A DNA stretch of 64,000 bases from a virus (lineage: Duplodnaviria; Heunggongvirae; Uroviricota; Caudoviricetes): IMG/VR virus record IMGVR_UViG_2839610755_000002; one strand, given 5' to 3'. The notes beneath the pieces are model-generated. The model searched no databases. It saw only the letters and a program-made list of their open reading frames with translations, and was not told the origin of the DNA. The translations under genes and the position numbers were made by a program. This document shows, in pieces, positions 45,864 through 47,891 of this stretch (positions are counted from its first letter, which is position 1; each line of letters begins with the position of its first letter).

Positions 45864-46532
45864 ATGGCTGGTTTCTTTGATGACATGTTTGAGGACACAG
45901 AACCATCACAACAAGTGACTGGTGATAACCTCCCGGACACCGAATCGGATCCGGATATTCCAGGCGAAGGTTCTGAACTGATTGAAGAGGAAGATATTGA
46001 TGCTGAAATCGAAACCGATGGTGTTAACGTTGGTAATATTGTTGATCCTGTGGAGGACAATCACCTTCCCAATCTGGATCACGGCCTGCTTAGTGATTCT
46101 GGTGTGCGCCACCGTTATCAAGGTCATGCAGTTTTTAATAACCTTGTGCGGATGGACTGGCTCAAAGCAATCAAGCTAGACCCTGACTCATTCGATGCAG
46201 TTCTGTATCGCGCAATACCTTACAGAAACAAAAATGCACCTGAAACGGTACCTGAAATAATAGAACCGAACCAACGCATATATGACTATCAGGATCCAGA
46301 ACTGATAACGGCCCTCGACTGCCCGGATGAGATGGACGCCTTCTACGCGCTATACGACGGCAGTGATAATACGGGAATTAGCGACAGTGCTTTAATCCTT
46401 CGGTTAGCCGCCGTCAATGTGCCAGTGGGTTCTATGCTCGAATGGCTGGAACAGCTGTCAGACGGCACAACCATTCGCCGCTTCTGGTACATCCATAAAA
46501 TATTCAATTACGGCACTGCCAGGGTAGGCTGA
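45864..46532 (+). CDS. acidic protein, 3' end truncated by IS insertion
   Basis: ORF stops at the TGA supplied by the first bases of the IS left end; about 20 further codons continue after the IS. Confidence 0.55.
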
Positions 46533-46583
46533 ACCGCCCCGGAAATCCTGGAGACTAAACTCCCTGAGAAAGAGGTAAACAGG

Positions 46584-46910
46584 ATGACTAAAAATACTCG
46601 TTTTTCCCCCGAAGTCCGTCAGCGGGCGATTCGTATGGTTCTGGAAAGTCAGGATGAATATGACTCACAGTGGGCGGCAATTTGTTCCATTGCCCCAAAG
46701 ATTGGCTGTACGCCGGAGACTCTGCGTGTCTGGGTTCGCCAGCATGAGCGGGATACCGGGGGCGGTGATGGTGGGCTCACCAGCGCTGAACGTCAGCGTC
46801 TGAAAGAGCTGGAACGTGAAAATCGTGAACTGCGCCGCAGTAACGATATCCTTCGCCAGGCTTCCGCTTATTTTGCGAAGGCGGAGTTCGACCGCCTCTG
46901 GAAAAAATGA
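46584..46910 (+). CDS. IS3-family transposase OrfA (HTH)
   Basis: 108 aa; matches IS629/IS1203-group OrfA as I recall it. Confidence 0.9.
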
Positions 46911-47797
46911 TGCCACTGCTGGATAAGCTGCGTGAGCAGTACGGGGTCGGACCGGTATGCAGCGAACTGCATATTGCCCCGTCAACGTATTACCATTGTC
47001 AGCAACAGCGACATCATCCGGATAAACGCAGTGCCCGTGCGCAGCACGACGACTGGCTGAAGAGAGAGATACAGCGCGTATACGATGAAAATCATCAGGT
47101 GTACGGTGTGCGTAAAGTCTGGCGTCAGTTGTTACGGGAAGGAATCAGGGTGGCCAGATGTACAGTGGCACGTCTCATGGCGGTTATGGGACTTGCCGGT
47201 GTTCTCCGGGGTAAAAAGGTCCGTACGACCATCAGCCGGAAAGCCGTTGCCGCAGGCGACCGCGTAAACCGTCAGTTCGTGGCAGAACGACCTGACCAGC
47301 TGTGGGTGGCTGATTTTACTTACGTCAGCACATGGCAGGGCTTCGTCTATGTGGCGTTTATCATTGATGTGTTTGCCGGATACATCGTGGGGTGGCGGGT
47401 CTCATCGTCTATGGAAACGACATTCGTGCTGGATGCGCTGGAGCAGGCGTTGTGGGCCCGTCGTCCGTCTGGCACCATCCATCACAGCGATAAAGGCTCT
47501 CAGTATGTGTCACTGGCCTATACGGAGCGACTAAAAGAAGCCGGATTACTGGCATCAACAGGGAGTACAGGCGACTCGTATGACAACGCGATGGCTGAGA
47601 GCATCAATGGTCTTTACAAAGCGGAGGTAATACACCGTAAGAGCTGGAAAAACCGTGCAGAAGTGGAACTGGCCACACTAACGTGGGTGGACTGGTATAA
47701 CAATCGACGATTGCTGGGAAGGCTGGGCCATACTCCTCCGGCAGAAGCAGAAAAAGCTTATTATGCTTCCATCGGAAACGATGATCTGGCAGCCTGA
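46907..47797 (+). CDS. IS3-family transposase OrfB (DDE)
   Basis: 296 aa; DDE catalytic-core region; overlaps orfA as in IS3-family elements. Confidence 0.9.
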
Positions 47798-47891
47798 GTT
47801 CACAGATAAAACACTCTCCAGGAAACCCGGGGCGGTTCAGGCAGTTTGTTTTATTGCGTGCCTTCACGCGCCTTTGAAGGGAATTTCATCG

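Follow-up and report, generated by a model that had tools for sequence, protein, structure and literature searches.

An IS629 insertion truncates the stopper gene 7 of a P1-like phage-plasmid and plausibly lowers expression of genes 24, 6 and 5 behind it

What is left of a phage-plasmid when an insertion sequence (IS) lands inside one of its virion genes? We asked this question for a stretch of 64,000 nucleotides (nt; hereafter the window) from a virus of the Caudoviricetes (IMG/VR record IMGVR_UViG_2839610755_000002), in which an IS at 46530-47839 brings an open reading frame (ORF) of 222 amino acids to an end. A preliminary description, made from the letters alone, had taken this locus for a recent IS629-like insertion into a P1-like replicon with probable polar effects on the genes downstream. 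We analyzed the identity of the element, its insertion site, the interrupted gene, which is gene 7 of a phage-plasmid close to P1, and the consequences to be expected for the late operon 26-25-7-24-6-5 in which this gene lies. Our answer, which we consider very probable as a whole, is that a recent IS629 jump truncated the gene of the stopper protein gp7, and we infer from it a polar effect on the genes behind and a loss of infectious virions.

Judged by its sequence, the element is IS629 itself, which is more than the IS629-like label given before, as it is 100% identical over its 1310 base pairs (bp) to copies that the depositors of E. coli O157:H7 Stx2a phages annotated as IS629. The same element is labeled "IS3-like element IS1203 family" by the Prokaryotic Genome Annotation Pipeline (PGAP) of RefSeq. 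Its parts are the following.

46530..47839, plus strand: IS629 (IS3 family), 1310 bp, oriented like the operon (full-length identity to annotated IS629 copies).
46530..46554, plus strand: left inverted repeat, IRL (repeat comparison of the element ends).
47815..47839, minus strand: right inverted repeat, IRR (repeat comparison of the element ends).
46584..46910, plus strand: orfA, 108 amino acids, HTH_Tnp_1 domain (Pfam PF01527, E=2e-12).
46907..47797, plus strand: orfB, 296 amino acids, DDE/rve integrase core, read in the -1 frame with respect to orfA (Pfam rve, PF00665, E=9e-28; HTH_21, PF13276; rve_3).
46865..46981, plus strand: ALIL pseudoknot, a frameshift-stimulating RNA (Rfam RF01497, full-length match, 121.5 bits, E=1e-32, for a gathering score of 50).

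The limits first assigned to the element were exact, and its termini read 5'-TGAACCGCCCCGG...CCGGGGCGGTTCA-3', with the canonical TG...CA ends. The 25-bp inverted repeats are imperfect, matching at 13/13 bases at the tips and at 22/25 overall. Both the slippery run of six A (46902-46907) and the overlap between orfA and orfB fall within the ALIL pseudoknot match, and a slip of one base back after the second lysine codon gives an OrfAB fusion of 404 amino acids, a product that is also called in the source record, SCKH01000006.1. In addition, the window holds two identical IS629 copies, both at sites that are new with respect to a sibling plasmid four single-nucleotide polymorphisms (SNPs) away. 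This copy of IS629 is complete and intact, and presumably active.

IS629 landed at codon 222/223 of gene 7, and it is flanked on both sides by a GGC triplet.

46527..46529, no strand: left GGC of the target-site duplication (single GGC at the empty sites of P1 and pF1273-3).
47840..47842, no strand: right GGC of the target-site duplication (same evidence).

These triplets had been proposed to be a target duplication, and IS-free relatives allowed us to examine this. The empty sites of phage P1 and of plasmid pF1273-3 (from E. coli O157:H7 strain F1273) both read CCAGGGTAGGCAGTTTG, with one GGC only; therefore the pair in the window is a true duplication and not a 1-in-64 coincidence. As the last base of the element (A at 47839) is the same letter as the A that precedes the left GGC, the alignment alone fits a duplication of 3 or 4 bp, and IS629 is known for duplications of both lengths (PMC3271280). 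We retain 3 bp because the 1310-bp element then has the canonical TG...CA ends. When the IS and one GGC (1313 bp) were cut in silico from positions 45000-49500 of the window, the 3188 bp left were identical to pF1273-3 at 3188/3188 positions and differed from P1 by 26 mismatches. The flanks are about 99.2% identical to P1, in agreement with the earlier view of the replicon as a P1-like phage-plasmid.

The sibling plasmid also helped in dating the event. Positions 1-63277 of the window are collinear with 25653-87618 of pF1273-3 at 99.994% identity, with four substitutions in about 62 kilobases (kb) and no insertions or deletions besides the two IS629 copies. Searches with both junctions gave no contiguous match in 5,426 complete E. 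coli genomes, the four rows listed as 100% covered being two-piece matches to IS copies located 81-614 bp away. A search with the whole region found no other record in PLSDB or in the phage collection with an IS at this site of gene 7, and the exact left-junction sequence was absent from the GTDB representatives and from IMG/VR. The exact truncated gp7 was found on one public contig only, SCKH01000006.1 (GCA_004100305.1), whose gene surroundings are identical to those of the window. Considering the perfect duplication, the identity of the IS with the second copy, the absence of mismatches over 3.2 kb and the four SNPs over 62 kb with respect to the sibling, and the single public assembly, the insertion is recent, as had been supposed; these sequence comparisons indicate that it took place very recently, in a host of the O157:H7 type. 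IS629 is abundant in O157, where 62% of its copies are in prophages (PMC3271280).

The second IS629 copy is placed at the end of the window.

63278..64000, minus strand: second IS629, inverted, in a ppfA homolog and cut off by the window end (repeat comparison).

Its visible part matches the first copy, reverse-complemented, at 723/723 positions, and pF1273-3 lacks it at the corresponding site (position ~87618). Neither of two versions of the ppfA ORF truncated by it had a database record. This copy lies outside the gene 7 lesion and belongs to the same recent burst. Its left flank, AGGC followed by TGAACC, repeats the four bases present at the gene 7 site. With 15.4 kb between them, the two inverted copies bracket 24-6-5, ant/icd, dbn, ban, dmt and rdgC; such a pair could invert the bracketed segment by homologous recombination or act as a composite transposon. 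On its side, pF1273-3 carries another IS3-family element, about 95% identical to IS629, in bplA, the baseplate wedge gene, which lies outside the window (L005 11955-13265). The length of the source contig suggests that the plasmid of the window lacks this IS, and the two siblings would then have been hit independently. We also observed by self-comparison that the window contains two ant/icd-type antirepressor modules, about 93-97% identical (21935-23280 and 50356-51904), and a third copy of this module is present elsewhere on pF1273-3.

As the source is a contig of a whole-genome shotgun project (SCKH01000006.1) with two identical IS629 copies on it, and as assemblers err at repeats, we considered the explanation that a repeated IS629 was misplaced in the plasmid contig of a draft assembly. 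A misplaced repeat, however, would give no perfect 3-bp target duplication with base-exact IS termini. The length of the contig also speaks against an artefact: its 101,123 bp correspond to 99,810 + 1,313, and fit a closed circle made of the pF1273-3 backbone, minus the IS in bplA and plus two IS629 copies, thus a net gain of 1,313 bp. An assembly error is for these reasons hardly credible, and we proceed with a genuine insertion.

The gene hit by this insertion is now in two pieces.

45864..46532, plus strand: truncated gene 7 (stopper or head-completion protein), residues 1-222 of 242 (PDB 9ums_B; phrog_1906).
47843..47905, plus strand: orphaned 3' end of gene 7, codons 223-242 and the TAA stop (comparison with the restored ORF).

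The truncated ORF ends with GTA GGC TGA, where TGA corresponds to bases 1-3 of the IS, exactly as first described, and the last residue is Gly222. Since the leading edge of IS629 reads 5'-TGA in either orientation, as seen by direct reading of the inverted repeats, about 1 in 3 insertions into a coding frame ends the protein at once; the stop supplied by IS629's own TGA is thus unremarkable. Splicing had been expected to lengthen the ORF by about 20 codons, and we found that gene 7 lost exactly 20 residues (8%) and gained no foreign ones. The restored ORF encodes 242 amino acids, with its stop at 47903-47905; the protein is identical to that of pF1273-3, differs from P1 gp7 by one residue (V129A, 241/242 identical) and matches PDB chain 9ums_B, "Gp7", with E=5e-166. 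Both IS-free relatives, P1 and pF1273-3, therefore have an upstream gene that continues to 242 amino acids, and neither of them ends it at Gly222 or carries a second GGC. The allele of the window is consequently a truncated member of its family, shorter than the full-length protein and devoid of its C-terminal motif.

The function of this protein was clarified only lately. A proteomic study of P1 left gp7 without an assigned role, under the older label of "tail stability" (PMC9024508), and then a 2026 cryo-electron microscopy (cryo-EM) study identified it as the hexameric stopper of the P1 connector, whose helical domain caps the adaptor PmgC and whose long loop docks onto the tail terminator gp24 (PMC12810830). 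Pfam has no family for gp7, gp24, gp25 or gp6. The phrog_1906 profile reaches the last residue of gp7, and the segment removed by the IS is well conserved: 18 homologs, the most distant at 34% identity, all have L224, Y226, C227, P229 and R231, and S223 and E234 are nearly invariant among them, forming together with the invariant five the C-terminal motif that was lost. Structural information came from an AlphaFold2 model of a 76%-identical homolog, P0003. In this model, the equivalents of the lost residues belong to the last beta-strand, whose partner is the long strand before it. Its predicted local distance difference test score (pLDDT) has a mean of 57.5 overall, with about 80 in the folded core and about 77 in the ten-residue block that holds most of the last strand. 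The model matches 9ums_B with E=5e-22 and a TM-score of 0.71 normalised by target length; weaker matches were to the stopper of phage 812 and to the neck proteins of T4 and XM1. The solved chain of 9ums_B has 158 residues, which, provided that disorder is confined to the acidic N-terminus, would be residues 85-242. The lost segment is thus predicted by the model to be the last strand of the gp7 beta-sandwich, and without this strand gp7 is probably misfolded or unable to assemble.

Other broken alleles of gene 7 exist in public E. coli data, namely the gp7 homologs P0001, P0002, P0011 and P0017. In P0001 (232 amino acids, 44 member sequences), a loss of 2 nt just ahead of the IS site, by a few bases, turned CCAGGG into CCGG and put the C-terminal motif removed in the window out of frame. 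In P0002 and P0011 gp7 is fused with unrelated sequence, and P0017 is frameshifted.

We then considered the operon in which gene 7 lies. The gene order 26-25-7-24-6-5 behind the late promoter LP26 is collinear with that of P1 (NC_005856), and the other members of the operon are as follows.

44208..44226, plus strand: P1 late promoter LP26, AAATGACTAGCGGTAGAAT (exact match to the LP26 feature of NC_005856).
44256..44633, plus strand: gene 26 homolog, baseplate plug (collinear with the P1 annotation; role from PMC12810830).
44643..45860, plus strand: gene 25 homolog, 405 amino acids, "tail stability" (phrog_1722, E=1e-227).
47892..48677, plus strand: gene 24 homolog, tail terminator, 261 amino acids, GTG start (P1 annotation; phrog_1767; role from PMC9024508 and PMC12810830).
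48679..49695, plus strand: gene 6 homolog, baseplate hub (P1 annotation, PHROG profile, PMC9024508, PMC12810830).
49688..50320, plus strand: gene 5 homolog, spike with an OB-fold, last gene of the operon (phrog_430; P1 annotation).
50364-50385: hairpin terminator after gene 5 (terminator scan).

In P1, cryo-EM assigned gp6 to the baseplate hub, gp5 to the spike and gp26 to the plug (PMC12810830). The gene 5 homolog scored 22.9 bits against the Pfam family Phage_base_V, just under the cut-off of 23.8. As gp7 is the stopper and gp24 the terminator, the cut made by the IS falls between two genes with products that meet where the head joins the tail. LP26 is intact and is the sole annotated promoter able to drive the six genes in this direction, and 1.3 kb of IS now separates genes 24, 6 and 5 from the remainder of the operon.

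Is there any other promoter able to serve these three genes? The P1 late-promoter motif (a -22 box and TANNNT) has no match on the plus strand of 47840-50320, so that we found no downstream late promoter for a rescue of 24-6-5. On the plus strand of the whole window the motif matches only at 4627 and 45913. The second of these, AAGTGACTGGTGATAACCT at 45913-45931 on the plus strand, follows the P1 late-promoter pattern with one mismatch in the -22 box, the right spacing and the TANNNT; it lies within gene 7, at its 5' end, has no annotation in the record of P1 and, being upstream of the IS, is unable to rescue the genes downstream. A scan for sigma-70-like promoters on the plus strand of 47840-50320 was also negative, and neither the scan nor inspection by eye revealed a promoter pointing out of the right IS end towards gene 24. 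With no promoter of their own found, genes 24, 6 and 5 depend on transcription from LP26 across the IS. Translation may be affected as well. The restored stop of gene 7 had been noticed to overlap the GTG at 47892, and we found that this overlap is of 14 nt, exactly as in the P1 annotation, where the equivalent GTG starts gene 24. Upstream of this GTG, at 10 nt, there is a weak Shine-Dalgarno-like sequence, GAAGGG. A GTG start, GAAGGG and a start codon located inside the end of gene 7 suggest that gene 24 is translationally coupled to gene 7, a coupling that the insertion would have removed. Taken from the sequence, a polar effect on 47892-50320, with reduced expression of 24-6-5, is plausible.

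Several points weigh against these consequences, and they would be at home in a different explanation, in which the insertion is functionally silent: gp7 minus 20 residues assembles, read-through from LP26 suffices for gp24, gp6 and gp5, and the phage is viable. The IS lies sense to the operon and its ORFs are translated, orfB to within 95 nt of the GTG of gene 24, and the only terminator-like hairpin inside the IS on the plus strand is a weak one (47297), so that Rho-dependent polarity could be mild. Gene 24 retains 49 nt of native upstream sequence, GAAGGG included. The loss in gp7 is of 8% only and the shorter protein might keep partial function. The P0003 model is that of a homolog and has a low overall confidence, with about 90 disordered residues at the N-terminus. 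Finally, both the polarity and the loss of virion production are read from sequence. On the contrary, a silent insertion has to be reconciled with a lost segment that contains five residues invariant down to 34% identity and is predicted to be a core beta-strand, and with the abolition of the coupling that the 14-nt overlap provided. Polarity is the classical outcome when an IS inserts into an operon. Weighing both sides, we regard a silent insertion as unlikely, and gp7 lacking its last 20 residues as probably misfolded or assembly-incompetent.

The insertion also created a reading frame that may mislead annotation. In the right end of the IS, an ATG that lies inside orfB, in another frame, opens a reading frame that continues into gene 24 uninterrupted by a stop, which gives a spurious hybrid ORF of 304 amino acids (47763-48677) with an N-terminal extension of 43 amino acids on gene 24. 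PGAP made a call of a similar kind for gene 7 in pUTAK-13-1 (L008 4155-4880). The 304-amino-acid ORF is probably an annotation trap with no real product.

We propose the following sequence of events. IS629, which moves by copy-out/paste-in with a DDE transposase made via -1 frameshifting, recently transposed into a P1-like phage-plasmid near-identical to pF1273-3. The insertion duplicated GGC, ended gene 7 at Gly222 and removed the conserved C-terminal motif. Given that gp7 is expected to act as the hexameric stopper, closing the filled head and docking the terminator gp24, a misfolded or assembly-incompetent gp7 would leave heads and tails unable to join stably. In parallel, gene 24 would be uncoupled from the translation of gene 7, and 24-6-5, transcribed only through the IS from LP26, would be expressed at a lower level. 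Most likely, the element still replicates as a plasmid and yields no infectious virions.

We compared this event with known cases. The IS629 copies of O157:H7 prophages and of pO157 (also annotated as IS1203 family) share with it the sequence (100% over 1310 bp in Stx2a phages), the inactivation of genes, the duplication of 3-4 bp and a preference for prophages with no sequence-specific target (PMC3271280). With respect to those copies, only the site is new here, gene 7 of a P1-like plasmid, as it was not found in the other records searched. Other P1-like plasmids disrupted by IS629/IS1203-type elements share the element family, the plasmid type and the late operon. The insertion is in gene 25 in pMB9880_2, at the 25/7 boundary in pUTAK-13-1, in the middle of gene 7 in pZ1323CEC0018-4, at the start of gene 24, together with a deletion, in p95NR1A and p95JB1A, in gene 6 in pE2855-2, in gene 6 in reverse orientation in 2015C-3101 unnamed2 and in gene 5 in pRHB30-C19_3. 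The positions differ from that of the window and several are accompanied by adjacent deletions; all are independent events. Phage P1 itself holds IS5 (7652-8846, with a 4-bp duplication) and IS1 (22626-23393), their duplications being annotated; in P1 these elements lie in non-essential regions and the phage is fully viable, whereas IS629 in the window truncates a virion gene.

In other P1-like plasmids, this six-gene operon has received at least seven further IS629/IS1203-type insertions, all independent, and these, together with the other broken gp7 alleles, raise the question of whether the insertion was selected or regulatory. In such an explanation, hosts silencing the virion output of a resident P1-like element would gain an advantage and the operon would be a recurrent target, or insertion and precise excision would form a reversible switch. 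The switch would be driven by the IS-excision enhancer protein (IEE), by which the excision of IS629 is promoted in enterohaemorrhagic E. coli (PMC9943667). The seven insertions, however, came from an operon-centred query and are a biased sample. As a control for a hotspot, we built four synthetic junctions, each combining 200 nt from another place on the plasmid with the initial 200 nt of the IS, and queried with them the collection used for the real junctions. The IS copies near the four synthetic junctions numbered 0, 0, 0 and 2 (both in dmt) versus 1 and 2 independent events at the real junctions, which is not a significant difference; this small four-junction control thus gave no convincing sign of an insertion hotspot in the operon. 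Moreover, no sequence target of IS629 is known, 62% of its O157 copies are in prophages (PMC3271280), and the benefit for the host is unclear since lysis on induction proceeds without the stopper. A selected or regulatory insertion appears very unlikely to us, and equally far-fetched is the stronger form of this idea, in which the operon 26-25-7-24-6-5 is a preferred or selected landing zone of IS629-family elements in Shiga toxin-producing E. coli and the IS an IEE-reversible toggle between "plasmid only" and "phage-competent" states.

Our preferred reading, a chance IS629 jump that truncated gene 7, describes an ordinary IS629 event of a kind already known, as the element, the duplication, the orientation and the outcome are all within the known pattern, and the site, gene 7 of a P1-like plasmid, is what is new. 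Our analysis adds that the interrupted gene is the stopper and its neighbour the tail terminator, that a conserved motif was lost, which record the DNA comes from and that a second IS copy is present. The practical value is small. The insertion explains the probable failure of this P1-like plasmid to make infectious or transducing particles, and it leaves two annotation traps, a "phage tail protein" of 222 amino acids and the spurious 304-amino-acid ORF running from the IS into gene 24. IS629 site profiles are already in use for the study of O157 lineages, and this strain-specific site could serve as a typing marker. More generally, defective P1-like phage-plasmids turn into plain plasmids and transposases are frequent in phage-plasmids (PMC10879196, Pfeifer and Rocha 2024). 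The plasmid of the window shares with those decayed elements the same route, in which phage functions are lost and plasmid maintenance is kept (PMC10879196), and differs from them in being at an early, single-lesion and potentially reversible stage instead of showing large gene loss. It thus adds one clean, early-stage case to the decay of phage-plasmids into plasmids through IS activity.

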